From positions 1,088,001-1,152,000 of the forward strand of contig OZ245817.1 of NCBI GenBank assembly GCA_965228475.1: a DNA stretch of 64,000 nt. The letters run 5' to 3'. This document shows, one piece after another, positions 4,250 through 55,218 of the stretch. The translations under genes and the position numbers were made by a program. The notes below the pieces were generated by a model, which saw only the letters and a list, made by a program, of their open reading frames with translations, was not told the origin of the DNA and searched no databases. Source of the stretch: Myxococcota bacterium. Its GTDB lineage: Bacteria > Myxococcota_A > UBA9160 > JAFDDA01. Position 1 is the first letter of the stretch. Every line of letters starts with the position of its first letter.

Positions 4250-6993
4250 GTGCGACCAAGCCGCTCAAGAGATGGCTGGTTGTAGCTGCAGTCGTGGTTC
4301 CGTGGGCAGTCGTCTGGCCTTCTCCGGATGGGCTTCGCGCGCCGACTCAGGCCCTGGATGCACCGCTCGACGAAGGTCTCCGCGTGCCCTTCGCCGCGAC
4401 GTTTCTTCGCACGGCCAACCCCGCCTTCGAGCCGCATGACCGGGTTCTCGATCTCACGTTCGAAGGGGAGGATCAGCTGATCCCGCCGAGAAACCGCGCA
4501 GAGCTGCTGCTCCTGGCGCGGGAGAGGCATGGCGACCGGATGTCGATACGCCTCGTGCGAGGCCGCGATCCAGTGACCGTGCGAGCCAACACTACGACGC
4601 AGTCGGGATGGCGGTCTTTGGGCGCGAACTGGCCGACGCTCTTCCTAGGAGCTGCATTCCTCCTCTTCGGCCTGGCCGTCGGCCTCGGCAGCCAGCATCC
4701 CGTCGCTTCTCCGCTCTTCGCGGTGTCGTGGTGCGCCGGAGCCTGGGCGCTCTCGCAGGTGGACTTGATGCTGCCAGAGGACCCGGGGCTCCACGGGATA
4801 CCCTCGTTGCGCTCGCGGCTCGGGCTGGTGAGCGTCACTCTCCTGCCCGCCTCCTTCATCCATCTGGCGATGCGGTTCCCGGTCGTGTCGCCTCGCTTCC
4901 GCTCCGCCGGAGCGGCCTTGGCTCCCTATGGCTTCTGGCTCTTCCCGGCCGCCTTCGCCCAGTTTCACGTCCAGAATGCGGCGTTCCTGAACTCCCTGGA
5001 GCGCATCGCCATCGGAGCTGCCTTCCTGGCAGCAGGAATCCTCATCGCCGGGAGCATCACCTCGGCGAGCACGATGACCCCGATCGAACGCGCGCGGAGC
5101 CGCGCTCTGCTGCTCGGCCTGGGAGTCGGCAGCGCCGTACCGCTCGTCTATTTCCTCTGGGGCGGGACACCTCCAACGCCGCTCCGCACGCCATTCATCC
5201 TGTCCTTGCTCGCCTTCCCCGCATCCATCTCGTGGGCGATCGTCCGCTACCGCCTTCTCGATCCGCCCATGTGGGTGCAGAGCGCGGTGCTGACCGGGCT
5301 GACTGCCTCGGTTGCTCTGCTCCTGGCGAGTGGCGGTGTCTCCTTCGCGTTCTCGTTCCTCGATGAAGCTGAGCCCCTCGGATCGGCCGAGGTCATCCCG
5401 GTCGCGTTGACCACGACCGTCCTGTACCAGCTCCTTCATTTCGGCCTGCGACGGGGAGCCGCCGGTCGGGTCCTGCGAGAGCGAGCCTTCGAGTCGCTTC
5501 TAGAGGAGGCGAGCCAGCAGCTCGCGTCCGCGAGGCACCCGAAGCGAGTCCTCGAAGGCATCGAGCCGCTGATCCGTACACATCTCGGCGCCAGCGAGGT
5601 CAAGTGCCTTCTCGAAGAGGAGGCGGCGGCCTGTTCCGAGCCCCTCGTCAACCGCGGACTGGATCTTTGGCAAGGCGAGCGCAAGGCACCCGAGGCAATT
5701 GTGCGGGCGCGGTCCCGGGCCGAGGACCCGGGACCGGATGTGCCCGAGATCGTCCTTCCGCTCCTTCCCAGGAGCACGGCGAAGGCGTTCGTGTTCGTGG
5801 GATCGCGTTCCGATGGCCTCCCGTACGGGGAGGACCACGTTCGTATGCTCGTCAGTCTTCGCCACGTCGCTACCACCGCGTTGGAGGCCGCGGCGACGAC
5901 TGCAGACCTCGAGGAGCGGGTGGCCGAGAAGACCACATCGCTCGAACGGGCTCTCTCGGATCGCCAGGCCGTGCTCGGTGCCGCCCGAGCGATCTGTGAG
6001 GCGGACGGGGCTGACGAGGTGCTCGCGACGCTCCGCGGGTTCGCCGCAGCGCATCAAGCTTCCCTCCGCTGGGAAGGCGGCACTGAGGGGGCGCACATGC
6101 TCAAGCTGGCGATCCCAGGGGAGCCCGTGCGTTTGTTGGAGCTCGAAGGGATCGCGCCTCAGCGCGCCGAGGAGCTTGCCCCACAGCTCGGCACTCTCTG
6201 CGCGTTCGCAGGGCTCGCCATCGGTCGGCTCAACCTGCTCGCAGAGCTCAAGCTAGAGGTCGAGCGACAGGCGGAAGAGATCGCCGAGATCAGCTCCCGC
6301 CGACTTCACGCGGAGTTCGTCCGGGGCGTCGCCCACGAGCTGCGAAAGCCTACCGAGGAGGTCCGGCGCCGCGTCGAGGACCTCGGTGCCTCCTTCGCAC
6401 CGAAGCACGCCGACGCTCTCCGGCGGATCCGGGCAGCGAGCCGCGAGATGTCGCGCCGGCTCGACCTGCTGCTCTTCCACTCGGGGGTACGTCTCGATCT
6501 CCAGCGGATCGACCTGGTGCGGGTAGTCGAGGACGCCGTCGCGACCACAAGGCTTGGCTGCCCCGATCGGGACTACCGGCTGAGCCACGACCTGGCGCGC
6601 CTACCCATGATCGGGGACCCAAGCCGTCTGCTCTCGGTGGTCGAGAATCTCCTCGACAACGCCGCCAAGGCGACAAGCGCTGGACAGGCGATCGAGGTCG
6701 GCACCTCGCTGGAGGCTGGCAGCAGCTCCGGCGGCGCCCAGGTCCGCCTGGAAGTCGTGGACGAAGGGCGAGGCATCCCGCCCGATCGCCTCGAAGTGAT
6801 CTTCCAGCCCGGCGTGGGCCTCGAGCCCGGTGGGTTCGGGCTGGGCTTGTCCCTGTGCCGTGAAATCGTCCGCATGCACGCTGGGACGATCGAGGTGGCC
6901 TCCACGCCAAGCAGAACCAGCTTCTGCATTCGCTTGCCGCAGTTCCGTTCGGGGGAAGACGATGACCGCGACAGCATCGATTCTGTTGGTTGA
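4246..6993 (+). CDS. Multi-TM sensor histidine kinase
   Basis: ATGA overlap with the MMPL stop; many N-terminal TM helices; H-box AHELRKP, N-box ENLLDNAAK, DEGRGIP, GFGLGLSLC. Confidence 0.9.
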   Translation: MSATKPLKRWLVVAAVVVPWAVVWPSPDGLRAPTQALDAPLDEGLRVPFAATFLRTANPAFEPHDRVLDLTFEGEDQLIPPRNRAELLLLARERHGDRMSIRLVRGRDPVTVRANTTTQSGWRSLGANWPTLFLGAAFLLFGLAVGLGSQHPVASPLFAVSWCAGAWALSQVDLMLPEDPGLHGIPSLRSRLGLVSVTLLPASFIHLAMRFPVVSPRFRSAGAALAPYGFWLFPAAFAQFHVQNAAFLNSLERIAIGAAFLAAGILIAGSITSASTMTPIERARSRALLLGLGVGSAVPLVYFLWGGTPPTPLRTPFILSLLAFPASISWAIVRYRLLDPPMWVQSAVLTGLTASVALLLASGGVSFAFSFLDEAEPLGSAEVIPVALTTTVLYQLLHFGLRRGAAGRVLRERAFESLLEEASQQLASARHPKRVLEGIEPLIRTHLGASEVKCLLEEEAAACSEPLVNRGLDLWQGERKAPEAIVRARSRAEDPGPDVPEIVLPLLPRSTAKAFVFVGSRSDGLPYGEDHVRMLVSLRHVATTALEAAATTADLEERVAEKTTSLERALSDRQAVLGAARAICEADGADEVLATLRGFAAAHQASLRWEGGTEGAHMLKLAIPGEPVRLLELEGIAPQRAEELAPQLGTLCAFAGLAIGRLNLLAELKLEVERQAEEIAEISSRRLHAEFVRGVAHELRKPTEEVRRRVEDLGASFAPKHADALRRIRAASREMSRRLDLLLFHSGVRLDLQRIDLVRVVEDAVATTRLGCPDRDYRLSHDLARLPMIGDPSRLLSVVENLLDNAAKATSAGQAIEVGTSLEAGSSSGGAQVRLEVVDEGRGIPPDRLEVIFQPGVGLEPGGFGLGLSLCREIVRMHAGTIEVASTPSRTSFCIRLPQFRSGEDDDRDSIDSVG

Positions 6994-8290
6994 AGACCAC
7001 GAAGGCACGCGTTCTCAGCTGAGCGACGAGCTCCAGTCGTCAGGCTACCGGGTGATTTCAGCGGCCGACGGCCGAGAGGCGCTGGAGGCCTTAAGGAGTC
7101 GTCCTGTGGACCTGATCCTGAGCGACTATCGCATGCGGCCGATGGACGGCTTGTCACTGCTCCGCGCTGTTCGCAAGACGCTCGAGGTGCCCTTCGTTCT
7201 CTACAGCGCAGGAGCCGACGCTCAGGCGGTCTTCGAGGCAGGGCGAGAGGGTGCCGTCCGCTTCCTGGAGTATCCGTTCCGTCTCGCGGACCAGCTCCTT
7301 CCCACGATCGCTGAATCCCTGGGTCGCCCACGTGGCGGCACGCCAAGCGTTCCGCGGGCCGGTGCCGACCGGCTCATCGGCGCCTCCGCAGGCATGCGCC
7401 GCGTGCGGGCCACCATTCGCCGCCTTGCTCCGACTGCGACGACGGTCCTGATCCATGGCGAGACCGGCACCGGCAAGGAGCTCGTGGCCCGGGCCATCCA
7501 TGAGGAGAGCGACCGCGACACCTTCGTGTCGGTCTCCGTGCCGGAGCTGTCGGAGGGCGTGCTCGAGAGCGAGCTCTTCGGTCATACCCGAGGAGCTTTC
7601 ACCGGAGCGGTCTCTTCTCGGCCGGGCCTCTTCGAGGCGGCGAGCGGCGGGACGCTCTTCCTGGACGAGATCGGCGACACCCCGCTGCCGATCCAGGTGA
7701 AGCTCCTCCGGGCGCTCGAAACGCGGGAGATCCGGCCCGTCGGTGGCTCGGCGCCGCGCACGGTGGACGTTCGGATTGTGGCAGCGACCAACCGCGACCT
7801 GGCGGAGATGGTTCGCCGCGGAGAGTTCCGCGAGGATCTCTTCTACCGGCTGCGCGGCGCCACCATCCACCTTCCTCCGCTCCGCGCCAGGACGGCCGAC
7901 ATCGAAGGGATCGCGCAGGTGCTCGTAGCCGAGATCGCAGAGGCAGCGCGAGTGCCGCTTCCGAAGCTGGACCCCGGTTTCCTCGCGGCCCTGGCCGGCT
8001 GTCCATGGAAGGGCAACGTACGAGAGCTGCGGGCCGTCCTGGAGAACGTCATCCTCTGGCGGGACGGGGATGGGCCCCTCGAGCGGGTTCACCTGATCGA
8101 GGCTCTGGTGGCCATGAACCCGAATCTCAGCCCGGAGGACCAGCTTCTGGCACAGAAGATCCTGGACGCCTACCGCCGCCACGGCTGGAACCAGGAGGCC
8201 GCGCGCCGGGAGCTCGGCCTGACTCGCGGCGAGTGGCGCAGCCGGTTCACGCGGCTCGGTCTCGACGCAGTGAGGCGTCGAAGGCGGTGA
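6962..8290 (+). CDS. NtrC-family sigma-54-dependent response regulator
   Basis: Receiver ILLVED..LSDYRM; Walker A GETGTGKE; ESELFGH-GAFTGA; LFLDEIGD; FREDLFYRL; WKGNVREL; C-terminal HTH. Confidence 0.95.
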   Translation: MTATASILLVEDHEGTRSQLSDELQSSGYRVISAADGREALEALRSRPVDLILSDYRMRPMDGLSLLRAVRKTLEVPFVLYSAGADAQAVFEAGREGAVRFLEYPFRLADQLLPTIAESLGRPRGGTPSVPRAGADRLIGASAGMRRVRATIRRLAPTATTVLIHGETGTGKELVARAIHEESDRDTFVSVSVPELSEGVLESELFGHTRGAFTGAVSSRPGLFEAASGGTLFLDEIGDTPLPIQVKLLRALETREIRPVGGSAPRTVDVRIVAATNRDLAEMVRRGEFREDLFYRLRGATIHLPPLRARTADIEGIAQVLVAEIAEAARVPLPKLDPGFLAALAGCPWKGNVRELRAVLENVILWRDGDGPLERVHLIEALVAMNPNLSPEDQLLAQKILDAYRRHGWNQEAARRELGLTRGEWRSRFTRLGLDAVRRRRR

Positions 8291-9132
8291 AGGCTAGAGC
8301 TGCGCTCCTCCTCGCGCTCCTGGCTGCGAGTGCCACGGCGTCCGGAGCCCCGGACGCGCTCGAGGATGCAGTCGAGCCGTCCGCTCTTCAGATCGTGGAG
8401 ACCGCCTTCGACCGCATGTTCAACTACCCCTCGGTGCGGACGGTGACCCTCCGGATCCACCGCCAGGGCGACCGGATCACCTACCGCTCCTTCGACGTCG
8501 TCTACAAGAAGGTCGATGGCCGCGGCCGAACGCTGCTGCGCTTCACCGAGCCCGAGTATCTGCGCGGCAACACCCTGCTGATCATCGAGGAAGAGGACGG
8601 TCGGAACGACACTTGGATCTACCAGCGGGAGCTGCGGCGGCCGCGACGGGTCCTCGCAGGCCACAAGGGCGACCCGTTCTACGGCAGCGATCTCTCGTTT
8701 GAGGACCTGGAGCACCACGATTGGCGACGCTTCGACCTCCAGCGCCACCCCGACACGACCTTGCAGGGTAGACGGGCCTTCGTCGTGGAGGCGGAGACGC
8801 CATCCGACTCGCAGTACTCGAAGGTCGTGGCGACGGTCGAACGCGATCGCTTCGCACTGCTTCGGCTGGACCTCTTCAAAGCGGGGTCGGGAGAGGCGAT
8901 CAAGTCCTTGGAGTTGGCGGCGGATGAGATCACCGAGGACGGCGGCATCCTCAAGCCCGACCGCATGTGGGTTCGGCAGCCGGGGCGCGATGCCGCGACA
9001 GAGGTGATCTTCGACCAGATCGAGGACGACCCCGAGATCGCAGACTCGGTCTTCGCCGCGATGAGGCTCGAACGTTCGGGCGAAGATCTCTACCGCCTAG
9101 TCGAGCGGCTGCGCGAGGAGTCCGCGCCATGA
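8287..9132 (+). CDS. Outer-membrane lipoprotein-sorting (LolA-like) protein
   Basis: Signal peptide; LLRFTEP..RG..LL, WIY...RRPRR, FYGSDLSFEDL motifs typical of MMPL-associated LolA-like proteins; GTGA overlap. Confidence 0.8.
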   Translation: MKARAALLLALLAASATASGAPDALEDAVEPSALQIVETAFDRMFNYPSVRTVTLRIHRQGDRITYRSFDVVYKKVDGRGRTLLRFTEPEYLRGNTLLIIEEEDGRNDTWIYQRELRRPRRVLAGHKGDPFYGSDLSFEDLEHHDWRRFDLQRHPDTTLQGRRAFVVEAETPSDSQYSKVVATVERDRFALLRLDLFKAGSGEAIKSLELAADEITEDGGILKPDRMWVRQPGRDAATEVIFDQIEDDPEIADSVFAAMRLERSGEDLYRLVERLREESAP

Positions 9133-10223
9133 TGGACGGCTACCGCCGACGGCCGCTCTACAGCGCGGACAACGAAGACACGCGCTCCGAACTCAAGGCA
9201 CTCGAGATCGGAGGCGACGACACGGTCGTCGCCATCGCGGCAGGAGGGGGTAGGGCTCTCAGCCTCCTGACGGCCGGTCCAAAGCGTCTCATCGCGATCG
9301 ACCGTCGCCCTGAGCAGGTCTTCAATCTGGAGCTCAAGGCCGCGGCGATGGACGCGTTCGATCTGGCCCACTTTCAGGGCTTCCTGGGCATCGCGCATGG
9401 CTTCGATCGCCTGGACCAATACCGGACTGTTCGCCCGTCTCTTTCGCGAAGCGCCCGAAGGTACTGGGACAATCGCCGTCGGCTCATCGAGGCCGGCGTC
9501 TTTTTCGCCGGCCGCACCGAAACGGCGCTCATCCGGTTCATGCAGGGCTTGAAGGCCCTCGGTCTGATGGCTTGGGCAGAGCCCTTCTTCCAGGCGACCT
9601 CGCTGGAGGCGCAGCAAGCCCTCTTGGAGGCTCGGCGCCAGCACGTAGATCAGGGCATGGTCTGGTGGAAGCTCTTCTGCCACCCCTTGGTGATCTATTC
9701 GCTCGCCCAGGACCCAAGCTTCCTCCGCTCGACGGACGAGAGCGTCGGCGCCTACCTCGTTCGGCGCGTAGTCGACTACGCATCGTCTCACCTGGTCCGA
9801 GAGTCCTACGTCCTGCGGCTCGCTTATGACTGCGGTTTGAGCCCGAACAGTCCGTTGCCACCATACCTCGAAGGCACGGGTTTCGACCAGGCGAAGAAGC
9901 ATCTCGACCGTCTCGAGGTCCAATGCGGCGACCTTCGTGACTTCGTCCCTCGCTCCCGCATCAGTAGTCGGGTCAAGTGGTCGCTCTCGGACGTGAGTTG
10001 CTGGATGACGGAAGCGCAGTTTCATGATCTTCTACGCTCCATCACAGTTGCGCTCCCGCCGGCGTCACGCTTCTGCGCCAGGAACTTCGCAGCTCGCCGC
10101 GAGATTCCGCGCGATCTTCGCCACCGCGTTCGCAGGATGGACGAGCTTTGCTCCGCTCTCAACTCGGAAGACTCCTCGGTCATCTACCGCTTCGAGTGCG
10201 CGGAGATATTTCCAGGCGCCTAG
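9129..10223 (+). CDS. DUF3419/BtaA-like SAM-dependent 3-amino-3-carboxypropyl transferase
   Basis: YSADNED..E..AL, IAAGGGRALSLL SAM loop, LELKAAA, YWD, SLSDVSCWM; ATGA overlap. Confidence 0.72.
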   Translation: MMDGYRRRPLYSADNEDTRSELKALEIGGDDTVVAIAAGGGRALSLLTAGPKRLIAIDRRPEQVFNLELKAAAMDAFDLAHFQGFLGIAHGFDRLDQYRTVRPSLSRSARRYWDNRRRLIEAGVFFAGRTETALIRFMQGLKALGLMAWAEPFFQATSLEAQQALLEARRQHVDQGMVWWKLFCHPLVIYSLAQDPSFLRSTDESVGAYLVRRVVDYASSHLVRESYVLRLAYDCGLSPNSPLPPYLEGTGFDQAKKHLDRLEVQCGDLRDFVPRSRISSRVKWSLSDVSCWMTEAQFHDLLRSITVALPPASRFCARNFAARREIPRDLRHRVRRMDELCSALNSEDSSVIYRFECAEIFPGA

Positions 10224-12305: not shown

Positions 12306-12549
12306 CCGAGAGGCGCTCCGAGCCTGATCGTGACCGTCATCCGACCACGATCACACACAGCTCGGGTCGTCCGCTACAGCGGCTGGCGTGGTTCCCGCTG
12401 GTTCTCTCGCGCCTACCAGAACCTTTCGGATCTCTCTTCGCAGCGGCGCTCCCAGACTTCATCGTGGCTACTCAATCACCCGGTACTTTCGGGCAGTTAG
12501 CCCACGTCGACGGTCGCCAAGGCCCAGCATCTCTTTGGCCCGACCCCGA

Positions 12550-12565
12550 TGGCACGGTCATTGCT
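12550..12565 (+). promoter_or_regulatory. Sigma-54 (-24/-12) promoter of the trb operon
   Basis: TGGCACGGTCATTGCT, full consensus GG-N10-GC, ending 17 nt before the trbB ATG. Confidence 0.8.
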
Positions 12566-12582
12566 CTAGCCCGGGGCTGCCC

Positions 12583-13563
12583 ATGAGCCCCTCCTCCACC
12601 GACCTCCACGGGCAACGCGATAGGCGTCTGCGCGACAAGCTGCGGCGAGAGCTCGGCGGCGACGTGCTCGCTGCGCTTGCTGACTCGGCCGTGGTCGAGA
12701 TCATGCTGAACGCGGACGGCGACCTGTGGGTGGAGCGGCTGGTCTCTGGTGTCGCCCGGCTCGAGCGGAGCATGAGCCACTCTCAGGCCGAGAACCTCCT
12801 CGGCACCGTCGCCGCCATCGCTGACACCGAGATCAACGAGTCGAGTCCGCTGCTCGAGGTCGAGCTGCCGTTCGATGGCAGTCGCTTCCACGGGGTCGTG
12901 CCTCCGATCTCTGCCGGCCCCGTCTTCGCGATCCGGAAGCGCGCGATCCGCGTCCACACGCTCGACGAATATGTGGGGCAGGGGGTCATGCTGGCTTGGG
13001 AGCGTGACGCGCTCTGCGATGCGCTGGAGCGTCGAGAGAACATCGTCATCTGTGGGGGCACTGGATCTGGGAAGACGACGCTCGCGAACGCGCTGCTTCG
13101 CGAGGCGGTCGACCTGGCCGGGCCCAGCGAGCGGTTCGTGATTCTCGAGGACACGGTCGAGCTCCAGTGCTCGGCCGCCAACCATATCCAGCTCAGGACG
13201 ACGGACGACGTCGACCTGACGCGCCTGGTTCGGGCCACGATGCGGCTGCGGCCCGACCGCATCGTCATCGGGGAGATACGGGGGAGGGAGGCCCTCGCGC
13301 TGCTCAAGGCGTGGAATACCGGCCATCCGGGGGGGATGACCACGGTCCATGCAAACAGCGCGGGGGCAGCCCTCTCCCGAATCGATCAGCTCGTGCAGGA
13401 GGCCGGTGTCCCGACCCAGCCGGAGCTGATCGCCGACTCGGTGGACCTGATTGTTTCGATCACTCGCAAGAACGGTGGGCGCCGGGTGGACGAGCTCCTC
13501 CGCGTGGAGGGCTACGAACCCGGCCAAGGCTACTGCCTGTCGCGCGTTGACGCGGGAGGCTGA
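12583..13563 (+). CDS. trbB: P-type conjugative ATPase TrbB (VirB11)
   Basis: VVEIMLNADG, GGTGSGKTT, ILEDTVEL, RLRPDRIVIGE, WNTGHPGG. Confidence 0.95.
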   Translation: MSPSSTDLHGQRDRRLRDKLRRELGGDVLAALADSAVVEIMLNADGDLWVERLVSGVARLERSMSHSQAENLLGTVAAIADTEINESSPLLEVELPFDGSRFHGVVPPISAGPVFAIRKRAIRVHTLDEYVGQGVMLAWERDALCDALERRENIVICGGTGSGKTTLANALLREAVDLAGPSERFVILEDTVELQCSAANHIQLRTTDDVDLTRLVRATMRLRPDRIVIGEIRGREALALLKAWNTGHPGGMTTVHANSAGAALSRIDQLVQEAGVPTQPELIADSVDLIVSITRKNGGRRVDELLRVEGYEPGQGYCLSRVDAGG

Positions 13564-13573
13564 GGAGGCAGAG

Positions 13574-13939
13574 ATGAACGCAGGCAAGGTGATGGCGGCT
13601 CGTTCCCGAGGGCGGGCCGGTCGGTGGGGCAGGGCGCTCGTGACGGCGGGGGCGCTGGGAGGCCTGGCGCTCCTGGTGGCACCGGAGGTCGCCCATGCGA
13701 CGCCCTCGGGGCCGTCGATGCCTTGGGACGCGCCGCTCCAGACGCTCCTCGACAACCTCCAAGGGACGGTGGCGCGGATCCTCGTCACCGTGGCGGTGGT
13801 CATCACGGGCCTCCTGTTCGCGTTCGGCGAGTCGGGCGGCGCCTTCCGGCGGGTCTTCGGGATCGCGTTCGGGGCGGCCATCGCTCTGGGCTCGCTGACC
13901 GTCCTCTCGAGCCTCGGGTTCGTGGGAGCGACCTTCTGA
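13574..13939 (+). CDS. trbC: Pilin TrbC (VirB2)
   Basis: Signal ending AHA, MPWDAPLQ..L..LQG.VA, two TM segments; GAGGAG RBS. Confidence 0.9.
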   Translation: MNAGKVMAARSRGRAGRWGRALVTAGALGGLALLVAPEVAHATPSGPSMPWDAPLQTLLDNLQGTVARILVTVAVVITGLLFAFGESGGAFRRVFGIAFGAAIALGSLTVLSSLGFVGATF

Positions 13940-14292
13940 TGGAGCCGGGGACCACGCGAGGGGCCGATGTCGATCGTCCCAGGATCGTTCCGATTCACAG
14001 AGCACTGACACGCCCGGTCCTGCTTGCTGGAGCGGATCGGGAGCTCGTCCTCGCCAACGGCGTGGTGGTGATCGCTCTGCTCTTCGGGATCGGCTTCTCG
14101 TGGTACACGGCCTCGGTCTCGGCGGTCCTGCTGATCGTGGGGCACTGGGGCCTCGTGCTCCTCGCGAAGCGCGACGCGGAAATCCGGCGGGTGTACGTGC
14201 GCCACGTTCGCTTGGCGACGTACTACCCGGCCGCGGCGCGCTGCGTCCGAACCGCTCCGCTCGTCCACGCCTCCGTGACGGTCTCGGAGTAG
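13939..14292 (+). CDS. trbD: TrbD (VirB3)
   Basis: PIHRALTRPVLLAGADRE motif; coupled to trbC. Confidence 0.9.
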   Translation: MEPGTTRGADVDRPRIVPIHRALTRPVLLAGADRELVLANGVVVIALLFGIGFSWYTASVSAVLLIVGHWGLVLLAKRDAEIRRVYVRHVRLATYYPAAARCVRTAPLVHASVTVSE

Positions 14293-14296
14293 CGGC

Positions 14297-16729
14297 GTGC
14301 TTCGCGAGCATCGTGCGCAGGCGCTCGGGCTGCCGGACCTCCTGAACTTCGCCGCCCTGGTCGAGGAGGGCATCGTCCTCAACAAGGACGGCGCCCTCCT
14401 CACGGGCTGGTGGTACGCGGGGCCGGACATGGAGGCGGCCAGCCACGAGGAGATGGCGGTCCTCTCCTCGCAGGTGAACGGCGCCCTGGCCCGGCTTGGC
14501 AACGGCTGGATGCTCCAGGCCGATGCCATCCGGAAGCCGGCAGGAGCCTATCCGCCGCAAGGTGCCTTTGCGGATCCGACGACAGCCCTGATCGATGAAG
14601 AGCGCCGCCGGCAGTACCTGGCCGGAAGGAGCACCTACGAGAGCGTCTATGCGCTCACCGCGACCTACCTGCCGCCGCGCGACGTCCAAGCGCGGCTCGG
14701 CGGCTGGTTCGTCGAAGGGGAGGCGGAGGACGCGGGTGGATACGAGACCATCCTGCGCTCCTACCAGCGTCAGGTGGTGGAGCTCGAGGACGCCCTCTCC
14801 GACCGGCTCTCGATCAGCCGGATGGACTCTGAAGATCTCCTGAGCTTCCTCCACCTCTGCGTCACGGGCCGGGCGCAGCCCGTGCGAATCCCGCCCACCC
14901 CGATGTACCTGGACGCCCTGCTTGGAAGCCAGGATCTCGTCGGCGGGTTCCGCCCGCGCGTGGGCGACCGACACGTGCGGCCGATCGCCGTCGTGGGATT
15001 CCCTGCGGACTCGTTCCCCGGAATCCTGGACTTCCTCAACCGCCTTCCCGTCGAGTACCGCTGGTCGAACCGCTTCATCCCCCTCGATCCCGACACGGCG
15101 GAGGCTCGCCTCCGGATCGTCCGCCGCAACTGGTTCCAGAAGCGCCAGGGTCTCTCCGGCCTGGTGAAGCAGGCACTGAACATGGGGGAGTCGACCTTCG
15201 GCAATCGCGATGCCGTTGCGATGGCGGAGGACGCGGACGACGCCGTGGAGGAGGCGTCTTCCGGAACCGTCCGGTTTGGCTACTACACGAGCGTCATCGT
15301 CCTTCTCGACGACGAACTCGAAGCCCTGGACGCCGCGTCGCGCCAGGTCTGCCGCAGCCTCCAACACCACGGCTTCGCAGCGCGCGTGGAAGAAGTGAAC
15401 GCGCTCGAGGCGTACCTGGGCTCCATCCCCGGGCACGGCCATCGGAACGTCCGGCGTCCGCTGATCCACACGCTGAATTTCGCCGACCTCATCCCGACGA
15501 CGAGCGTCTGGCCGGGCCTCGACGAGAACCCGAGCCCCTACTATCCAGCGGGCAGCCCGGCGCTCCTCTACGCGAACACCTCCGGCTCGACGCCGTTCCG
15601 TCTGAACCTCCACGTCTCGGACGTGGGGCACACGCTCGTCCTCGGCCCCACCGGCTCCGGCAAGTCGACCCTGCTCGGTCTCCTGATGGCCCAGTTCTTC
15701 CGGTATCCGGGCGCCCAGGTCTTCGCCTTCGACAAGGGCTACAGCAGCCTCGTCCTCGCGAAGGCTGCCGGCGGCGATCACTACGACGTGGCCAGCGGTG
15801 AGAGCGAGGATCTGGCCTTCTGTCCGCTCTCCGGTGTCGATCGCGCGGAAGAGAGGCTCTGGGCAGCCGGCTGGGTGGAGATCCTGCTCGGGCTCCAGGA
15901 CGTGGCGGTGACGCCCGCTCACCGCCAGGCGATCCAGGCAGCGCTCGAGCGTCTCGGCACCAGTGAGAGCCGCACACTCACCGACTTCGTCAACACGGTG
16001 CAGGACCGGCTGATCCGGGAGGGCCTCCGCCACTACACGCTCCAGGGCGCGATGGGTCGCCTTCTCGACGCCGAGGAAGACGGGCTCCGGAACGGCAGCT
16101 TCCAGGTCTTCGAGATGGAGCACCTGATGAACACGGGCGACGTCAACGCGGTGCCCGTGCTCGCCTACCTGTTCCACCGCATCGAGCAGCGCCTGACGGG
16201 CCGGCCCACGCTGATCGTGATCGACGAGGCCTGGCTGATGCTCACGCACGGTGTCTTCGCCGAGAAGCTGGAGGAGTGGCTCCGGGTCCTCCGCAAGGCG
16301 AACGCCGCCGTCGTCTTCGTGACGCAGAGCCTGGCCGAGGTCTTCCGCTCTACTCGCCGGGACCTCCTGCTCGAGTCGTGCCCAACGAGGCTCTTCCTGC
16401 CGAACCCGGGCGCCCACAGCGAGCAAACCAGCGAGCTCTACCGGCGGATCGGCCTGAGCCAGCAAGAGATCGAGATCGTCGCAGGGGCCGTCCCCAAGCG
16501 GCACTACTACTACGCCTCTCCCCTCGGCCGCCGGCTCCTCGACCTCGGCCTCGGCCCGCTCGCGTTGAGCTTCGTCGGCGCGTCCGGCCGCGAGGACCTC
16601 GAACTCTGCCGCGGCCTCATCGAAGACAACCCGGGCGACTGGCCGGCGGAGTGGCTCCGCTGCCGTGGCCTGGGGGACTGGGCCGATGGATGGCGCGCCC
16701 TGAAGGAGAACCAGCATGCTTCGACCTAG
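14297..16729 (+). CDS. trbE: TrbE (VirB4) ATPase
   Basis: LPDLLNFA, NKDGA, GHTLVLGPTGSGKS, IDEAW, WLRVLRKAN. Confidence 0.95.
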   Translation: MLREHRAQALGLPDLLNFAALVEEGIVLNKDGALLTGWWYAGPDMEAASHEEMAVLSSQVNGALARLGNGWMLQADAIRKPAGAYPPQGAFADPTTALIDEERRRQYLAGRSTYESVYALTATYLPPRDVQARLGGWFVEGEAEDAGGYETILRSYQRQVVELEDALSDRLSISRMDSEDLLSFLHLCVTGRAQPVRIPPTPMYLDALLGSQDLVGGFRPRVGDRHVRPIAVVGFPADSFPGILDFLNRLPVEYRWSNRFIPLDPDTAEARLRIVRRNWFQKRQGLSGLVKQALNMGESTFGNRDAVAMAEDADDAVEEASSGTVRFGYYTSVIVLLDDELEALDAASRQVCRSLQHHGFAARVEEVNALEAYLGSIPGHGHRNVRRPLIHTLNFADLIPTTSVWPGLDENPSPYYPAGSPALLYANTSGSTPFRLNLHVSDVGHTLVLGPTGSGKSTLLGLLMAQFFRYPGAQVFAFDKGYSSLVLAKAAGGDHYDVASGESEDLAFCPLSGVDRAEERLWAAGWVEILLGLQDVAVTPAHRQAIQAALERLGTSESRTLTDFVNTVQDRLIREGLRHYTLQGAMGRLLDAEEDGLRNGSFQVFEMEHLMNTGDVNAVPVLAYLFHRIEQRLTGRPTLIVIDEAWLMLTHGVFAEKLEEWLRVLRKANAAVVFVTQSLAEVFRSTRRDLLLESCPTRLFLPNPGAHSEQTSELYRRIGLSQQEIEIVAGAVPKRHYYYASPLGRRLLDLGLGPLALSFVGASGREDLELCRGLIEDNPGDWPAEWLRCRGLGDWADGWRALKENQHAST

Positions 16730-17519
16730 CCGAACGACCTGGAGCGCGGGCCTCGCTCTCGTCGCCTTGGGCGGCGTCCTTCTTCTCGGCCCTCGCACTT
16801 CCCATGGTCAGCTGGTCGTGCTCGACCCGACCAATCTCGTCCACAACATCACGACTGCCATCCAGCAGACCCTGAGCGTCGCCCAGGAAGTGCAGATGGT
16901 GGCGAACCAGGGCACCCAGATCGTTCAGCAGGTCCGCCAGCTCGAGAACGAGCTGCAGATGCTCCAGAACATGCTGGTGAACACGACGCCTGCAGGCACC
17001 GTTGCCTGGGCCGACGTGCAGACGGCCCTCGGCAGCCTCGGCCAGGCGATGCAGATCGGCCTCTCCATTCCCTACACGCTCGGGAATGTTGCCACCGTCT
17101 TCGAGAGCCGCTTCCCGGGCTACGTGCCCCCGGCCGATTGGACGGCGGCGTACGACTCCTGGGCGACCAGCGTCCTCGACACGCTGCGCGGAACCCTCGC
17201 CGCGGCAGGCGAGAACGTTGCCGACGCGCCGAGCGTTCAGGCGGCACTCGACCGCCTTCGCCTGGCAAACGACGGCGCCCAGGGCCGACTCGAAGCCCTC
17301 CAGGTCGGCAACCAGATCGCGAGTCTCCAGGTCGAGGAGATCGGAAAGCTCCGCCAGCTCTTCGCGGCGCAGATCAGCGCGCAGAATGCCTACCTCGGTG
17401 CCCAGGAAGCCAAGGCTGCGGGATCGGCGGCGGCGTTCGACGCCTGGTTGGGCAACGCGCCCTCCATGATCCCGGTCTCCCGACCCAGCGAAGGTCTCGC
17501 GACCGTACCGCGCCCGTAG
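16716..17519 (+). CDS. trbJ: TrbJ (VirB5-like)
   Basis: Signal peptide, VLDPTN, Q-rich coiled coil, GRLEALQVGNQ; position after trbE. Confidence 0.85.
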   Translation: MLRPSRTTWSAGLALVALGGVLLLGPRTSHGQLVVLDPTNLVHNITTAIQQTLSVAQEVQMVANQGTQIVQQVRQLENELQMLQNMLVNTTPAGTVAWADVQTALGSLGQAMQIGLSIPYTLGNVATVFESRFPGYVPPADWTAAYDSWATSVLDTLRGTLAAAGENVADAPSVQAALDRLRLANDGAQGRLEALQVGNQIASLQVEEIGKLRQLFAAQISAQNAYLGAQEAKAAGSAAAFDAWLGNAPSMIPVSRPSEGLATVPRP

Positions 17520-17539
17520 GGCAGGGTGAGCGCCCTTCG

Positions 17540-18763
17540 ATGACCACGATCCTCACGGACCTCGTCAACGCCTTCCAAGCCGCCACCGCCGGCTGGTTCG
17601 GGGTCCTGTTTCCGATCGCGCGGAACCTGTTCTTCACGCTCGCCACGATCGAAATCGTGTGGGCGGCCTCCTGGTGGGTGATCGAGCGCGACGACCCGAC
17701 GCAGATCTTCGTCCAGTTCCTGAAGCGGATCATGGCGATCGGCTTCTTCCTGGCCGTCCTGACGTTCGCCGACGTCTGGATCCCGGCGATCATCGACGGC
17801 TTCGCCACGGCCGGGCGGACCGCTGGCGGGCTCCCGGAGCTGAACCCCAGCACCGTGATCGACCAGGGCATTGCGGTGGCGTCCACGCTGATTTCGAGCA
17901 TCAGCGTAGCCGGCTGGTTCACCTCGCCGGGCGGGAACTTCGTTGCCGCCATCGCGGCGCTCCTGACGTTCCTGGCATTCGTGGTCATCGCAGGCCAGCT
18001 GGCCCTGGCCCTGATCGAGATGTACGTGGTGATCGGCGGAGGCGTGCTGCTTCTCGGCTTCGCAGGCTCGCGCTGGACGATCCCCTTCGCCGAGCGCTAC
18101 CTGAGCTACGCCGTCGCCATCGGGATCAAGCTCTTCGTCCTCTACCTGATCATCGGGGTCGGGACTGCGCTCGCGGCGTCCTGGCAGCCGACCCTGGCCG
18201 GCGCGGGCAGCTCGCCCTCGGATCTCTTCGCGATCCTGGGCGCTGCGCTCGTCTACATGATCGTGGCGTGGCAGATCCCGTCCTTCGCGTCGGCGCTGAT
18301 TGCCGGTTCGGTCAACCTGACGCTCGGGACCGCGATCTACACCGGTGGATCCATGGCCGCCGTGGCGCTCGGCGTGAAGGGCCTTGCCGCGCGCGCCGCT
18401 GCATCCGGAGCGCGCGGGTCGACGGCGATGCTCGAGGCGGGCCGCTACGCCCGCGCCGCCCATGCGGCGGGCGCCTCTGGAGCAGTCGGCTCCCTTGCGG
18501 GGGGCTTCTCAGCCCTGGCGACCGAGGCCGTGGCAGCCCGAGCCCGCCGCGTCGCCGGCCTCCCGGCCGGACGCACGGCCGATGCCCTGCGCGAGCGCCG
18601 GATCGCCCGTTTCGGGGATCCCCGCGACGCCGCTTCGCCGGCCCGCCTTCCCGCTCCGCGCCCGGGCGCCGGCTCGCGCGGCGCCGGCGCTTCGCGTTCC
18701 ACCCAAACGCCGCCTTCGCCCCGTTCCGGCCCGACCGGAAGCGGGGATCGCCGGCAGAGCTGA
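17540..18763 (+). CDS. trbL: TrbL (VirB6)
   Basis: Polytopic membrane protein, LGFAGSRWT..AERY; Ala/Gly-rich tail. Confidence 0.9.
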   Translation: MTTILTDLVNAFQAATAGWFGVLFPIARNLFFTLATIEIVWAASWWVIERDDPTQIFVQFLKRIMAIGFFLAVLTFADVWIPAIIDGFATAGRTAGGLPELNPSTVIDQGIAVASTLISSISVAGWFTSPGGNFVAAIAALLTFLAFVVIAGQLALALIEMYVVIGGGVLLLGFAGSRWTIPFAERYLSYAVAIGIKLFVLYLIIGVGTALAASWQPTLAGAGSSPSDLFAILGAALVYMIVAWQIPSFASALIAGSVNLTLGTAIYTGGSMAAVALGVKGLAARAAASGARGSTAMLEAGRYARAAHAAGASGAVGSLAGGFSALATEAVAARARRVAGLPAGRTADALRERRIARFGDPRDAASPARLPAPRPGAGSRGAGASRSTQTPPSPRSGPTGSGDRRQS

Positions 18764-18778
18764 GGAGGTCCTCGACCG

Positions 18779-19429
18779 ATGCGCACCCCCGAGAATCCGT
18801 ACCTGGCCGGCCGGCTCGAGTGGAACGAGCGGTACCACGGCTTCCTTCGAGCCAAGCGCAACTGGCAGATCATCGCCGTGGTCGCCCTGGTCGTGAATGC
18901 GGTCCTCGGCCTCGGGATCCTCTGGCAGTCGTCCCAGAGTCGCGTCACGCCATACGTTGTCGAGATCGATGAGCTCGGTCAGACGCTCGTGGTCGGCCCC
19001 GCCGACAAGGCGCGTGCCGCCGATCCCCGTCTCGTCCGCTACCAGGTGGCGGACTTCATCCGCAAGACCCGCTCGATCGTGGCCGACGGCGCCGCGGAGA
19101 AGCAGTTCCTCGACACCGCCTACGCCCACGCCACGGGCGCGGCCACCCGCTTCCTGAACGACCACTTCAAGGTGCACAACCCGTTCCTGCGCATGCGGGA
19201 ACGGACCGTCAGCGTCGAGATCACGAGCGTGCTCTCGCTCCCGGCGAGCGACTCGTGGCAGATCCAGTGGACCGAGATCCACCGAGGTCTCGACGGGGCC
19301 GTCCTCACGCGCGAGCGCTGGCAGGCGGTCCTGAACGTGGAGATCCGGCCGGCAGCCACGCCAGAGGTTATCGAGCAGAACCCGCTCGGCCTCTACGTCA
19401 CGGACATCCAATGGACCAAACAGCTTTGA
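18779..19429 (+). CDS. trbF: TrbF (VirB8)
   Basis: NPYLAGR.EWNERY, PYVVEID, WQIQWTE, NPLGLYV. Confidence 0.92.
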   Translation: MRTPENPYLAGRLEWNERYHGFLRAKRNWQIIAVVALVVNAVLGLGILWQSSQSRVTPYVVEIDELGQTLVVGPADKARAADPRLVRYQVADFIRKTRSIVADGAAEKQFLDTAYAHATGAATRFLNDHFKVHNPFLRMRERTVSVEITSVLSLPASDSWQIQWTEIHRGLDGAVLTRERWQAVLNVEIRPAATPEVIEQNPLGLYVTDIQWTKQL

Positions 19430-19440
19430 GGAGGAGAGCG

Positions 19441-20397
19441 ATGCAGAGATTGCGTTCGAGAGCGTACTTGGCGGCGGCGGCGGCGGTGGCGTGCGGAGCG
19501 TGCTCCTCCGTGCCGGAGCTCGGGCCGGAGGACTTCGTTCAGGCCAACCAGGTGACGGAGGAGATCGTGTTCACGGACCCGATGGGACATCCGACCGACG
19601 CGGACTTCCTCAGCCAGGACGACCCGGAGCTCGTGGAGGCCGTCCGCCAGTTCCAGTCGACCGGGAAGGCTCCGATCGTCCGCAAGCCGGGCTTCGTCCG
19701 CTTCCCGTACGGCGACCGGCAGCCCATCCTCTACTGCAAGCCCCTGCGCGTGTGCGACATCCAGCTCCAACCGGGCGAGAGCGTCCTCCACATCGCGCTC
19801 GGCGACTCGGAGCGCTGGATCGCCTCCAAGATGGAGAGCGGCCCGGCGGACGGCCGCGCACCGCACGTCGTGGTGAAGCCGACCGAGTTCGACGTCAGTA
19901 CCAATCTGGTCATCACGACCGATCGGCGCGTCTACCACCTCGGGCTCATCAGCAACCAGGAGGACAGGTCCGGCTACTTCCGGAGCGTCCGCTTCTACTA
20001 CCCGCAAGAGACGGTCCAGCGGTGGGCGAGCGCAGAGGCGAAGCTGCGCGATGAGGTGCACAGGAAGCGCGACGTCGCTCGCCTCCCTCTCGTGAGGCCC
20101 GAGGGCCTCAACTTCGGCTACCGGATCGAGGGGGATCGAGTTCCCTGGCGGCCCGTCCAGGCCTTCGATGACGGCACCCGCGTCTTCCTGCAGATGCCGG
20201 GCGCGATGGCTGCCACGGAGGCACCCGCTCTCTTCGTCCGGTCGGACAGCGAAGAGCAGGCGCTCGTCAACTATCGGCTGCGGGGCCGGTACTTCGTGGT
20301 GGACAAGCTCTTCGCCCAGGCCGTGCTGGTTCTCGGAGTCGGCGGCGACCAGAAGCGAATCACCGTGACCCGCCTTCCGCGCGAAGCGCGGCGCTAG
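19441..20397 (+). CDS. trbG: TrbG (VirB9)
   Basis: Lipobox GAC, DIQLQPGE, TNLVITTDRRVY, FDDGTRVF, LVNYR. Confidence 0.92.
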   Translation: MQRLRSRAYLAAAAAVACGACSSVPELGPEDFVQANQVTEEIVFTDPMGHPTDADFLSQDDPELVEAVRQFQSTGKAPIVRKPGFVRFPYGDRQPILYCKPLRVCDIQLQPGESVLHIALGDSERWIASKMESGPADGRAPHVVVKPTEFDVSTNLVITTDRRVYHLGLISNQEDRSGYFRSVRFYYPQETVQRWASAEAKLRDEVHRKRDVARLPLVRPEGLNFGYRIEGDRVPWRPVQAFDDGTRVFLQMPGAMAATEAPALFVRSDSEEQALVNYRLRGRYFVVDKLFAQAVLVLGVGGDQKRITVTRLPREARR

Positions 20398-20414
20398 GCG
20401 GCGGAGGGCTTGCC

Positions 20415-21659
20415 GTGACGGACGAGCATGATCCGATCCAGACCGAGGAAGACGCGACACCCATCGAGCTCGAGCCGCGGCCGCGTGTCGTCCGCCTGAA
20501 CCGACGAGCGATCTTCGTTGCCGGCGGGCTCGCGACGGCTGTGATCCTTGCCGCCGTCTTCACCCTCTCGGATCGTAGCCAGCGCGTTGCTCAGCGCCCG
20601 GATCCAGCTGCCGGAGTGAGCACTGCGCCGGATCGGTTCTGGGAGGGTGAGTCGGATGGCGTCCCGCGTCTGGCCGCACCGGTTCCTGCGGCGGATGCAC
20701 CGGTCGCGGCCGCGGGTGCGCCCCCGGAGCTCGACAAAGACGCACCGCCTCAGCTTATCGAGACCAGCGATGGGGTTGCGGACCAGACCCTGCGGCGCGC
20801 CTTCACCTCGCGCCCGATCGTTTTCGAGGGAAACGATGAGGTCGCTCGAACCCCTAGCGCGGTTGTGGCGCCGCCGCACCGACCTGCGGCTTCTCCAGAC
20901 GCGGCGGGTGTTCTCCAGGCCGCGAGGGATCTCTACTCCAGCCAGCAGACGCAGGACGACCCGATGGTCAGCCAGAACCTCCAGCGCGAGAAGCTTGAGT
21001 TCATGCGCAACGCGGAGCTCGGCGTCGGGGAGGAGATCCTCGAGCACCGGGTTCGCCCGTCGCTCTCGCCCTACGAGGTGAAGGCCGGCTCGCTGCTGCC
21101 CGCCGTCCTCGTGACCGAGGCCAACTCGGACCTGCCCGGCCAGCTGATCTCACAGATCCGAGAGAACGTCTTCGACTCGGCCACGGGCGCACACCTGCTG
21201 ATCCCGCAGGGCACGCGCGCCATCGGCGTCTACGACAGCCTCGTTGCCCACGGCCAGGAGCGCGTGCTCGTGGCGTGGCAGCGCCTCATCTTCCCCGACG
21301 GCTCGGGCCTCAACCTGGGCTCCATGCCCGGGACGGACGCCGCTGGCGCCGCCGGCTTCCACGACCGCGTGGACCACGACTACCTGCGCGTCTTCGGAGG
21401 CGCCATCCTGCTGAGCGCCATCAGCGCCGGCCTCCAGGTCTCCCAGGGCACCTTCGGCAGCGGGAACCAGGCCACGGACGCGCGCGATCTCCGCGAGATC
21501 CTCGCCGCCGCCCTCGGCCAGAACCTCGGCGAGCTGGGTACCGAGATCGCCCGGCGCAACATGAACGTCCAGCCCACGCTGGAGATCCGGCCCGGCTATC
21601 GCTTCAACATCGCCGTCATGAAGGACCTGGTCCTGTCGGGGCCGTACCAGGCCTTCTGA
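20415..21659 (+). CDS. trbI: TrbI (VirB10)
   Basis: SPYEVKAGSLLPAVL, NSDLPG, LLIPQG, PTLEIRPG. Confidence 0.92.
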   Translation: MTDEHDPIQTEEDATPIELEPRPRVVRLNRRAIFVAGGLATAVILAAVFTLSDRSQRVAQRPDPAAGVSTAPDRFWEGESDGVPRLAAPVPAADAPVAAAGAPPELDKDAPPQLIETSDGVADQTLRRAFTSRPIVFEGNDEVARTPSAVVAPPHRPAASPDAAGVLQAARDLYSSQQTQDDPMVSQNLQREKLEFMRNAELGVGEEILEHRVRPSLSPYEVKAGSLLPAVLVTEANSDLPGQLISQIRENVFDSATGAHLLIPQGTRAIGVYDSLVAHGQERVLVAWQRLIFPDGSGLNLGSMPGTDAAGAAGFHDRVDHDYLRVFGGAILLSAISAGLQVSQGTFGSGNQATDARDLREILAAALGQNLGELGTEIARRNMNVQPTLEIRPGYRFNIAVMKDLVLSGPYQAF

Positions 21660-21683
21660 CGCGAGCCACAGGAGGAGAGCCAC

Positions 21684-21917
21684 GTGAAGCTGCAGCGGCG
21701 CAAGAGCGACGAGCCGCCCATCGAGATCCGCGTCACCGTGCCCGCCGAGATCGTCTCCGATCTCAAGGGCTACTGCCGCTACTACGAGGCCACCTACGGC
21801 GAGCCGATCGAGCTTCCGGCGGTCACCGTGGAGATCCTGCGCCACTTCCTGCGCGTGGAGCGCGACTTCCGCCGCTGGCGGCGCGAGCAGGAGCCGGGAG
21901 CGCCGCGGGGCTCATGA
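21684..21917 (+). CDS. DUF2274-like small protein following trbI
   Basis: DL.GY..YY...YGE pattern; GGAGGAG RBS; same position as in Tn4371-like elements. Confidence 0.7.
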   Translation: MKLQRRKSDEPPIEIRVTVPAEIVSDLKGYCRYYEATYGEPIELPAVTVEILRHFLRVERDFRRWRREQEPGAPRGS

Positions 21918-50043: not shown

Positions 50044-50508
50044 CTACGGACGCCGCTTCGTAGAGCCGAGCCGCCGATCGACAGCTCGTCGCCAGGCTTC
50101 GTACCGGCGGTTCACGCACGCGGATCGCGCCTCCGACTCATCATCGGAGAGGTCTGGTAGGTAGAGCATCAGGCTCACATACTGCCGATCGACCATGGCC
50201 TCGATCCGTTCGAGTCGGTCGCCCAGCGCGCGGATCTCGGCAAGCTGACGACTCAGCCCGCCGGCCATGCGCTCTTCCAGCTCACGGAGTAGCCGGTGGG
50301 CGAGAAGCCCGGATTGTGACTCGCCTCGTGCGCCTCTTTCGACCGGACGACTGAGTTCTTCGCGGATCGCATAGAGTTCCTCGAGCATGTCCCGAACGCA
50401 GTCGGAGACGCTGCATCGCTGCACGGCCGCTTCCCGGAGGATCCGCTCGTAGAGTTCCAATCGAACGTAGGCGCGCACGCTCTGGGAACGCCGGGTTGCC
50501 TCGCTCAT
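50044..50508 (-). CDS. Ribbon-helix-helix (CopG-like) protein downstream of traG
   Basis: VRAYV..ELY..I...A....SVSD.VR; ATGA-coupled to traG, as in Tn4371-like elements. Confidence 0.65.
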   Translation of the reverse strand: MSEATRRSQSVRAYVRLELYERILREAAVQRCSVSDCVRDMLEELYAIREELSRPVERGARGESQSGLLAHRLLRELEERMAGGLSRQLAEIRALGDRLERIEAMVDRQYVSLMLYLPDLSDDESEARSACVNRRYEAWRRAVDRRLGSTKRRP

Positions 50509-52670: not shown

Positions 52671-52776
52671 GACCGGCCTTCAGGCCGTGGAAGACCGGTC
52701 ATCGGAGGGGACCCACAGTATGCCATCTCGGTGGTCCCGTGGCCCGACCGCGTGTGGTGCGCTTCGTCGAGGGACG

Positions 52777-55217: not shown

Positions 55218-55218
55218 T

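Follow-up and report, generated by a model that had tools for sequence, protein, structure and literature searches.

How are the two transfer operons of an integrative conjugative element in a Myxococcota bacterium switched on? Known conjugative elements control transfer through repressors, quorum sensing or dedicated activators that work with the housekeeping polymerase. The element considered here belongs to assembly GCA_965228475.1, and the window that we analysed, a stretch of 64,000 nucleotides (genome positions 1,088,001-1,152,000 on a single 5.0-Mb contig, OZ245817.1; genome G+C content 70.5%), carries both of its transfer operons. The original prediction was that both operons start with matching sigma-54 promoters, and that transfer forms a sigma-54 regulon, plausibly driven by an activator encoded nearby. 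We assign a probability of about 0.5 to the complete statement, namely that both transfer operons have sigma-54 promoters and that the element's own activator switches transfer. Taken separately, the claim that both sites are genuine sigma-54 (RpoN) promoters is probable from their sequence and conservation, and the claim that the element's own kinase/activator pair is the driver, with its activator the most likely acting protein, is evenly balanced.

Two matching sites in front of the transfer operons

Two 38-bp sites with identical internal spacing, GCATCTCTTTGGCCCGACCCCGATGGCACGGTCATTGC at 12527-12564 (plus strand) and GCATGCGTTTGGCCAGAACACTCTGGCACACGTCTTGC at 55522-55485 (minus strand), were found at exactly the coordinates that had been predicted. 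Both end in a perfect TGGCAC-N5-TTGC core, and both have TTTGGCC 9 nt 5′ of this core and GCAT another 3 nt 5′. The features of the two promoter regions and the operons behind them are as follows.

12527..12540, plus strand: upstream box GCATCTCTTTGGCC, containing the half-site TTGGC; element-specific
12550..12564, plus strand: predicted sigma-54 -24/-12 core of the trb operon, TGGCACGGTCATTGC, with GG at 12551-12552 and GC at 12563-12564; predicted transcription start near 12576
12583..21917, plus strand: mating-pair-formation operon trbB-trbC-trbD-trbE-trbJ-trbL-trbF-trbG-trbI-DUF2274 (Pfam, NCBIfam)
50505..55388, minus strand: traF, RlxS-like relaxase gene (52777-54678) and traG coupling protein gene (50505-52670) (Pfam, NCBIfam)
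55219..55470, minus strand: first gene of the relaxase operon, encoding an 83-residue HTH_17 protein of excisionase/AlpA type (Pfam HTH_17, E 2.3e-11)
55485..55499, minus strand: predicted sigma-54 -24/-12 core of the relaxase operon, TGGCACACGTCTTGC (55499-55485 in reading direction), with GG at 55498-55497; predicted transcription start near 55473
55509..55522, minus strand: second copy of the upstream box, GCATGCGTTTGGCC; element-specific

No other perfect TGGCAC-N5-TTGC sequence occurs in the window. The composite pattern, allowing up to three mismatches, matched twice, compared with 0.00 matches expected from 100 shuffled sequences; the bare core with at most one mismatch matched four times against 2.31 expected, which is no enrichment at that stringency. 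Site 1 is separated by 18 nt from the ATG of trbB (12583) and site 2 by 14 nt from that of the HTH_17 gene (55470), each site lying in non-coding DNA and in the orientation of the gene that it precedes. The upstream in-frame extension of the HTH_17 gene also has the base composition of non-coding DNA. No sigma-70-like promoter match was found in the trbB intergenic region, and a sigma-70-like match (10 of 12 positions) lies approximately 520 nt 5′ of the HTH_17 gene. An Rfam search at both sites gave nothing meaningful and an inverted-repeat search of both promoter regions found none. The likely coding 271-residue open reading frame on the other side of the trb promoter (11490-12305, minus strand) points away from it.

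Conservation of the predicted promoters in related elements

With TrbB as the query, close relatives turned up in four same-order genomes (G171, G021, G053 and G051) and on two metagenome contigs (L118 and L120); G051 and locus L002 are one contig. TrbB identity to the window's protein was 87% (G171), 86% (G021), 82% (G053), 77% (L118), 67% (G051) and 64% (L120). All seven elements with TrbB at least 64% identical, the window's own included, have GG-N10-GC and TTGC placed 13-18 nt before trbB.

trbB core, window: TGGCAC-ggtca-TTGC, 18 nt from TTGC to start
trbB core, G171: TGGCAC-gctca-TTGC, 18 nt from TTGC to start
trbB core, G021: TGGCAC-accaa-TTGC, 18 nt from TTGC to start
trbB core, G053: CGGCAC-gcccc-TTGC, 17 nt from TTGC to start
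trbB core, L118: TGGCAC-agccc-TTGC, 17 nt from TTGC to start
trbB core, G051: GGGCAT-gggga-TTGC, 14 nt from TTGC to start (GTG)
trbB core, L120: CGGTAC-ggccc-TTGC, 13 nt from TTGC to start (GTG)

In an alignment of the seven sequences the invariant promoter columns were the GG, one A and TTGCTC, and the DNA 5′ of -26 could not be aligned. The core is likewise kept at six relaxase-operon promoters (the window's own and five in relatives) with diverged flanks, three of them carrying TTGA at -12, which brings the total to 13 promoter instances in seven elements.

Relaxase promoter, window: TGGCAC-acgtc-TTGC, 14 nt to ATG; first gene HTH_17
Relaxase promoter, G053: CGGCAC-gtcct-TTGC, 10 or 16 nt to ATG; first gene helix-turn-helix (HTH)-like
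Relaxase promoter, G051: GGGCAC-gcccc-TTGC, 28 nt to ATG, with a GGGAGG ribosome-binding site; first gene HTH-like
Relaxase promoter, G021 copy a: TGGCAC-N5-TTGA, 15 nt to ATG; first gene traF, no HTH gene
Relaxase promoter, G021 copy b: TGGCAC-N5-TTGA, 15 nt to ATG; first gene traF, no HTH gene
Relaxase promoter, G171: TGGCAC-N5-TTGA, 15 nt to ATG; first gene traF, no HTH gene

Retention of the sigma-54 positions amid drifting flanks is what would be expected of a functional promoter, even though the instances are related to one another.

Outside this group the motif was not found in the same place. Among 80 trbB loci of the genome collection (47-67% identity) the motif next to the start codon was present in L002 only, which is the G051 contig; two others had a match with two mismatches 43 nt upstream, and 62 had no match within the 330 nt scanned. 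None of six trbB loci from the same order at 56-61% identity had the motif, and it was missing from 21 of the best 24 of 80 metagenome loci. The nearest TrbB outside the clade in the named genome collection was at most 58% identical. Scanning for the motif in front of homologous trbB genes had been proposed as a check of the two-promoter claim, and its outcome is divided: the motif is conserved throughout the close family and is not conserved beyond it. The seven elements come from five of 225 genomes of the class plus the two metagenome contigs, and the class-level search returned no further relatives. One additional candidate, CGGCAC-N5-GTGC situated 15 nt from an estimated start at locus L119 (TrbB 60%), was considered too weak and was excluded from the 13 promoters.

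Two further observations concern the DNA around these promoters. In one of the G021 copies (L105, contig C358, 4072-4144) the relaxase-operon promoter has a tRNA-Arg gene and an integrase gene immediately 5′ of it, and the sister copy (contig C171) diverges from it completely 5′ of that promoter. Sequencing runs filed under two organism labels contain 94-100% of the words sampled from window positions 12300-14300, and a second near-identical copy of this segment may exist under another organism label.

The integrated element and its host

The boundaries of the element lie outside the window. A perfect 49-bp direct repeat corresponding to the 3′ part of tRNA-Thr(CGT) occurs at genome positions 1,040,397-1,040,445 and 1,153,046-1,153,121 (window coordinates -47,603 and 65,046), the right copy belonging to a complete tRNA-Thr(CGT) gene, and a tyrosine integrase with an Arm-DNA-binding domain is encoded just inside the left copy (window -47,472 to -46,213). 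With the tRNA-Thr repeats as its bounds, we estimate the size of the element at approximately 112.7 kb. Its G+C content is below that of the chromosome, and it includes both promoters and the activator operon described below. With an integrase, tRNA direct repeats, a relaxase, a coupling protein and a full type IV secretion set, it has the components by which an integrative conjugative element is recognised.

The sigma factor would be supplied by the host. A single rpoN gene was found at 1.92 Mb, outside the element (Sigma54_DBD, 214.7 bits), and G053, G171, G021 and G051 all carry a single rpoN that is not on the element's contig (4 of 4). Perfect cores number 27 in the 5.0-Mb genome, and of these only the two window sites carry the TTTGGCC-N9-TGGCAC and GCAT-N3-TTTGGCC extensions. 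The core is continued as TTGC-TC in 10 of the 25 chromosomal perfect cores and in 9 of the 13 element promoters; the element promoters therefore resemble the sigma-54 sites of the host lineage itself.

A kinase-activator operon upstream of trbB

The window encodes a candidate for the enhancer-binding protein that a sigma-54 promoter needs, in the following operon.

1913..10223, plus strand: operon of an MMPL transporter, a histidine kinase (~4246-6993), an NtrC-class activator (6959-8290), a LolA_like protein and a DUF3419 protein (domain matches, synteny)

The activator reading frame at 6959-8290 matches Response_reg (E 7.4e-19) and Sigma54_activat (E 1.4e-63) and has a GAFTGA loop, a Walker A motif and an AAA lid; at its C-terminus, alignments with full-length NtrC-family, ZraR and NifA chains run up to residues 421-433 and reach the ends of those chains. 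Its receiver, its AAA+ domain for sigma-54 interaction with the GAFTGA loop, and the match of its C-terminus to chains containing a DNA-binding domain together place it in the NtrC class. The adjacent histidine kinase is approximately 915 residues long and has no recognised sensor domain; its N-terminal region of some 790 residues matches no Pfam domain. Genes of the operon overlap, and the LolA_like gene begins on the stop codon of the activator gene.

No other enhancer-binding protein is encoded within the element. Its orthologues in G171, G021, G053 and G051 are 92, 87, 83 and 65% identical, every paralogue being at most 55% identical, and all four lie on the trbB contig, upstream of trbB and in the same orientation; L120 also has an orthologue (65% identical). 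The operon is syntenic and upstream of trbB in all six elements with enough sequence, L118 being too short, at distances to trbB of approximately 2.4 kb (window and G051), 4 kb (L120) and 27.6 kb (G053). A sigma-70-like -10 element (TACAAT, TATAAT or TAGGAT) is conserved before the MMPL gene at window 1840-1875 and at the same place in G053 and G051. In G051 a tRNA-Lys gene ends approximately 350 nt 5′ of the MMPL gene.

No sigma-54 match with up to two mismatches was present on the coding strand of the activator operon. By elimination, with its own operon having no sigma-54 site, the two transfer promoters are the activator's nearest sigma-54 targets. We read a one-mismatch match between the activator and LolA_like genes of L120 as chance; it falls in the part of LolA_like that encodes the signal peptide, and a corresponding match is missing from the other five elements. 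In G053 a chromosomal paralogue of the five-gene operon (L209, contig C12, 9438-18932) stands back-to-back with a perfect sigma-54 promoter, which precedes a gene for a 340-residue PspF-like activator with an HTH_8 domain. This arrangement suggests an activator cascade, and it indicates that such modules may therefore act on neighbouring sigma-54 promoters outside their own operon. The role of driver that the original prediction gave to the activator (placed there at 6962) is accordingly plausible and has been strengthened by its being the sole such protein of the element, by the 6 of 6 synteny and by the lack of a sigma-54 site in its own operon, all of which are associations and not proof.

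Proposed mechanism

One sigma-54 promoter would drive the trbB-trbI operon and the other the DNA-processing operon of the HTH_17 (excisionase-like) gene, traF, relaxase gene and traG. Polymerase carrying the host's single sigma-54 would be held at both as a silent closed complex until remodelled by an enhancer-binding ATPase, which would be the NtrC-class response regulator encoded at 6959-8290 after its phosphorylation by the large histidine kinase next to it. Transfer, and probably excision too, would then be gated by a signal and dependent on a host that bears rpoN. Start sites near 12576 and 55473, RpoN dependence, the acting activator and its place of binding are all parts of this scheme that we infer. 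The idea of transfer as a sigma-54 regulon is supported as far as sequence can support it, by the motif scan in the close family and the presence of rpoN in the host; outside that family the scan was negative.

A wider version, in which the whole transfer programme (secretion apparatus, relaxase, coupling protein and excisionase-like gene) obeys the element's own sensor kinase and NtrC-type activator, is expressed from near-leaderless mRNAs and in this element has the upstream box as an extra layer, is best regarded as tentative.

A candidate activator site

Dyads were sought in the 258 nt that precede each of the 13 cores. The top-ranking one, TTGGC-N12-GCCAA, was perfect in three sequences, compared with a maximum of one in 20 shuffles, except for a single shuffle that reached two. 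With up to one mismatch allowed it occurs 88-152 nt upstream in 5 of the 13 promoters.

55566..55587, either strand: perfect dyad TTGGC-N12-GCCAA, 88 nt 5′ of the relaxase core; candidate activator site
Dyad at -88: relaxase promoter of the window
Dyad at -149: trbB promoter of G021
Dyad at -152: trbB promoter of G053
Dyad at -130: relaxase promoter of G053
Dyad at -115: trbB promoter of G051

The genomic background is 83 sites with up to one mismatch per 5 Mb, three of which are perfect; one of the three is 55566-55587 itself and a second falls within the MMPL gene, at window 2376. As a binding site for the activator the dyad is a candidate, to be taken as a lead only.

The GCAT-N3-TTTGGCC box

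The 23 nt upstream of the core are identical at 15 positions between the two promoters of the window, which is the highest value among 78 pairs (mean 5.9) and is followed by 13 of 23 for an orthologous pair. Pairs of trbB and relaxase promoters within G053, G051, G171 and G021 share just 2-9 of the 23 positions and lack the box. The suggestion that GCAT-N3-TTTGGCC is an extra shared site thus holds within this element and in none of its relatives; a general role for the box is not supported, and its presence at both promoters is explained equally well by recent copying from one to the other. The opposite strand of the box again shows GG-N10-GC spacing (GGGCCAAAGAGATGC and TGGCCAAACGCATGC), and the box might serve as a proximal activator half-site or as a weak sigma-54 site placed back-to-back with the main one.

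Arguments against and alternative explanations

A number of observations weigh against sigma-54 control of transfer by the element's own activator, and the length of the leaders is the main internal argument among them. Setting the C of the -12 GC as position -12, in keeping with the established geometry of sigma-54 promoters, gives starts near 12576 and 55473 and leaders of 7 nt and 3 nt, so that the very short leaders foreseen in the original prediction are indeed obtained. The distance from TTGC to the start codon is 13-18 nt in 12 of the 13 promoters, predicting leaders of approximately 1-7 nt, which is unusually short, and at the relaxase promoter the predicted +1 (55473) falls within, and cuts, a good GAGGAG ribosome-binding site. 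At chromosomal perfect sites followed by a clear ribosome-binding site and start this distance is at least 22 nt (22, 24, 36, 40, 45 and 48), with starts roughly assigned. A ribosome-binding site of the GGAGG type is missing between TTGC and the start in every trbB promoter. If the promoters are real, these distances point to leaderless or near-leaderless mRNAs.

The remaining points concern the activator, its site and the independence of the evidence. At an E-value threshold of 0.05, Pfam called no HTH_8 domain in the activator. The dyad is missing from eight of the 13 promoters, the trbB promoter of the window lacking one out to -700, and it was picked after the fact among many combinations of half-site and spacer. 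TTGA replaces the near-invariant TTGC in 3 of the 13 promoters. All seven elements form one clade, so neither conservation nor synteny can be counted as independent evidence. Cargo genes, too, are preceded by sigma-54-like sites, and the activator operon may itself be cargo that is conserved and has its own role. The three cargo sites are the following, none of which has the dyad upstream with up to one mismatch.

Window -34,525 (genome 1,053,475): CTGGCGCGTGGCTTGCA, sigma-54-like and intergenic, 58 nt before copA-copB (copA encoding a copA-like multicopper oxidase); this region is locus L207, 9475-12320, element cargo outside the window
G053 contig C21, 64867, plus strand: CGGCAC-N5-TTGC, 13 nt before a 99-residue open reading frame beside the DUF3419 gene
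G053 contig C21, 41712, minus strand: AGGCAC-N5-TTGC, 37 nt before the gene for a 185-residue membrane protein

The alternative that survives best accepts the sigma-54 promoters as real and assigns their activation to another enhancer-binding protein, one of the approximately 20 of the chromosome, the five-gene operon of the element being conserved cargo such as an envelope, lipid or metal-stress module. The host genome does contain 27 Sigma54_activat matches, of which 21 have E-values no higher than 1e-46; no convincing binding site ties the element's activator to the trbB promoter of the window; the copA and G053 sites put sigma-54-like sequences in front of cargo genes; and, by score, ZraS/ZraR and AtoS/AtoC rank with the closest named relatives of the kinase and activator, none of them reaching its cut-off. 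Yet all six elements with enough sequence have kept the operon upstream of trbB although the intervening DNA and the cargo differ, the activator is the only one of its kind in the element and has no sigma-54 site in its own operon, the dyad occurs at transfer promoters and at none of the three cargo sites, and an element that moves between hosts cannot depend on a particular chromosomal activator. Overall we consider this alternative possible but rather unlikely.

Less probable by a clear step is that the conserved block is an operator for some other DNA-binding protein, or a short 5′ leader or translation signal, with transcription started elsewhere by another sigma factor. Its position just 13-18 nt from the start codons, the GAGGAG sequence at the predicted relaxase-operon start, TTGA at -12 in three promoters and the sigma-70-like match upstream of the HTH_17 gene would all suit such a role. 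What is conserved over 13 sites, however, is exactly the sigma-54 pattern (GG, GCA, a free N5, TTGC and fixed spacing), with the TTGC-TC extension at -12 that is seen at the chromosomal sigma-54 sites of the host, the trbB intergenic region offers no sigma-70-like promoter in its place, and neither promoter region has an Rfam match or an inverted repeat. Chance matches, or decayed relics without present function, would fit the unenriched bare core (4 against 2.31) but are very improbable in view of two perfect and correctly oriented cores that both precede transfer operons, a composite pattern absent from 100 shuffles and a core conserved across 13 promoters in seven elements.

Transfer genes and cargo of the window

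The trbB product scored 404 bits against the TrbB_P equivalog model (cut-off 304.55). The traF product is an S26 signal peptidase that scores above the TraF_Ti cut-off. The relaxase carries DUF3363, and its only NCBIfam match was NF041267 RlxS at 224.7 bits, far under the cut-off of 850. Relaxase gene and traG are adjacent with no LysR-type traR between them, and a LysR-type domain was found in none of the 61 window open reading frames scanned, which bears out the earlier remark that no such gene lies beside traG. The two transfer operons converge on approximately 28 kb of cargo that includes RND efflux genes, a P450 cluster, helicases, two RadC genes and ArdC.

Part of this cargo (22647-37384; RND efflux, TetR, P450 and metallo-beta-lactamase-fold genes) is shared with G171 (contig C90, 7140-19999) at 59-85% protein identity, and in G171 the shared RND/TetR/P450 block adjoins the relaxase operon. 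Two RadC-like JAB genes (37753-38337 and 45711-46424) bracket a block of helicase and ankyrin-repeat genes, and both match the sole RadC gene of G053 and that of G051. Between the activator operon and trbB lies a toxin-antitoxin-like pair of HEPN_RES_NTD1 and RES-domain genes (10296-11444) that was not seen at the corresponding position in G051 or G053.

Significance and comparison with known systems

The regulation of conjugation sets when and where genes spread, and a sigma-54 promoter coupled to a two-component sensor would follow a different logic from those in use elsewhere. If the scheme is right, there would be essentially no basal expression of transfer genes, and an environmental cue would be answered through the kinase of approximately 900 residues. 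In the tentative wider version, conjugation would be strictly off in the absence of an external signal, and translation would proceed without a ribosome-binding site. Host range would be limited to recipients that carry rpoN. Sigma-54 promoters that yield leaderless mRNAs would be unusual in sigma-54 biology. As the cargo of the element includes copper, mercury, czc-type and RND-efflux genes and a P450 cluster, the signal that triggers transfer would be of ecological interest.

Integrative conjugative elements of the Tn4371 family, from beta- and gammaproteobacteria, have a layout in which a LysR-type traR sits between the relaxase gene and traG. The element described here is like them in its P-type trbB-C-D-E-J-L-F-G-I order, TraF peptidase, RlxS-like DUF3363 relaxase, TraG, tyrosine integrase and metal-resistance cargo. 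It differs from them in having no LysR-type traR beside traG, in transfer operons that converge around 28 kb of cargo, in its insertion in a tRNA gene, where a 49-bp repeat bounds it, in a relaxase that falls so far short of the RlxS cut-off (224.7 bits against 850), and in the predicted sigma-54 promoters at both operons with a linked kinase/activator operon.

Full-text literature searches found no report of sigma-54-dependent transfer operons, which is not proof of absence in print. In the passages of a 2017 review of integrative conjugative elements that a term search returned, RpoS (for ICEclc) is the sole sigma factor and RpoN occurs just in the title of a nif-gene reference (PMC5812530). 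For Cupriavidus, a transcription-start study states that its algorithm identified no RpoN motifs, and a term search of it gave no match for trbB, conjugation or Tn4371 (PMC9045368).

In its combination of a histidine kinase, a receiver-AAA+ activator with GAFTGA and TGGCAC-N5-TTGC promoters the system resembles NtrB/NtrC at glnAp2, ZraS/ZraR and AtoS/AtoC. Unlike those systems, its targets would be the conjugation and excision genes of the element that carries it, its promoters stand 13-18 nt from the start codons, and the named NCBIfam models all score below their cut-offs. A dedicated regulator borne by the element and turning on its transfer operons would be the counterpart of the master regulators of ICEclc, SXT and ICEMlSym. 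On the TOL plasmid pWW0, XylR acts with sigma-54 at Pu, so that a mobile element with its own enhancer-binding protein and sigma-54 promoters uses the rpoN of its host. Our element would share with XylR/Pu both the element-borne activator and the reliance on host rpoN, but the genes regulated on pWW0 are catabolic cargo, whereas here they would be the transfer machinery itself. Set against these systems, the locus would represent a new regulatory variant, in which a sigma-54 circuit has been placed on the conjugation operons of a known kind of element.

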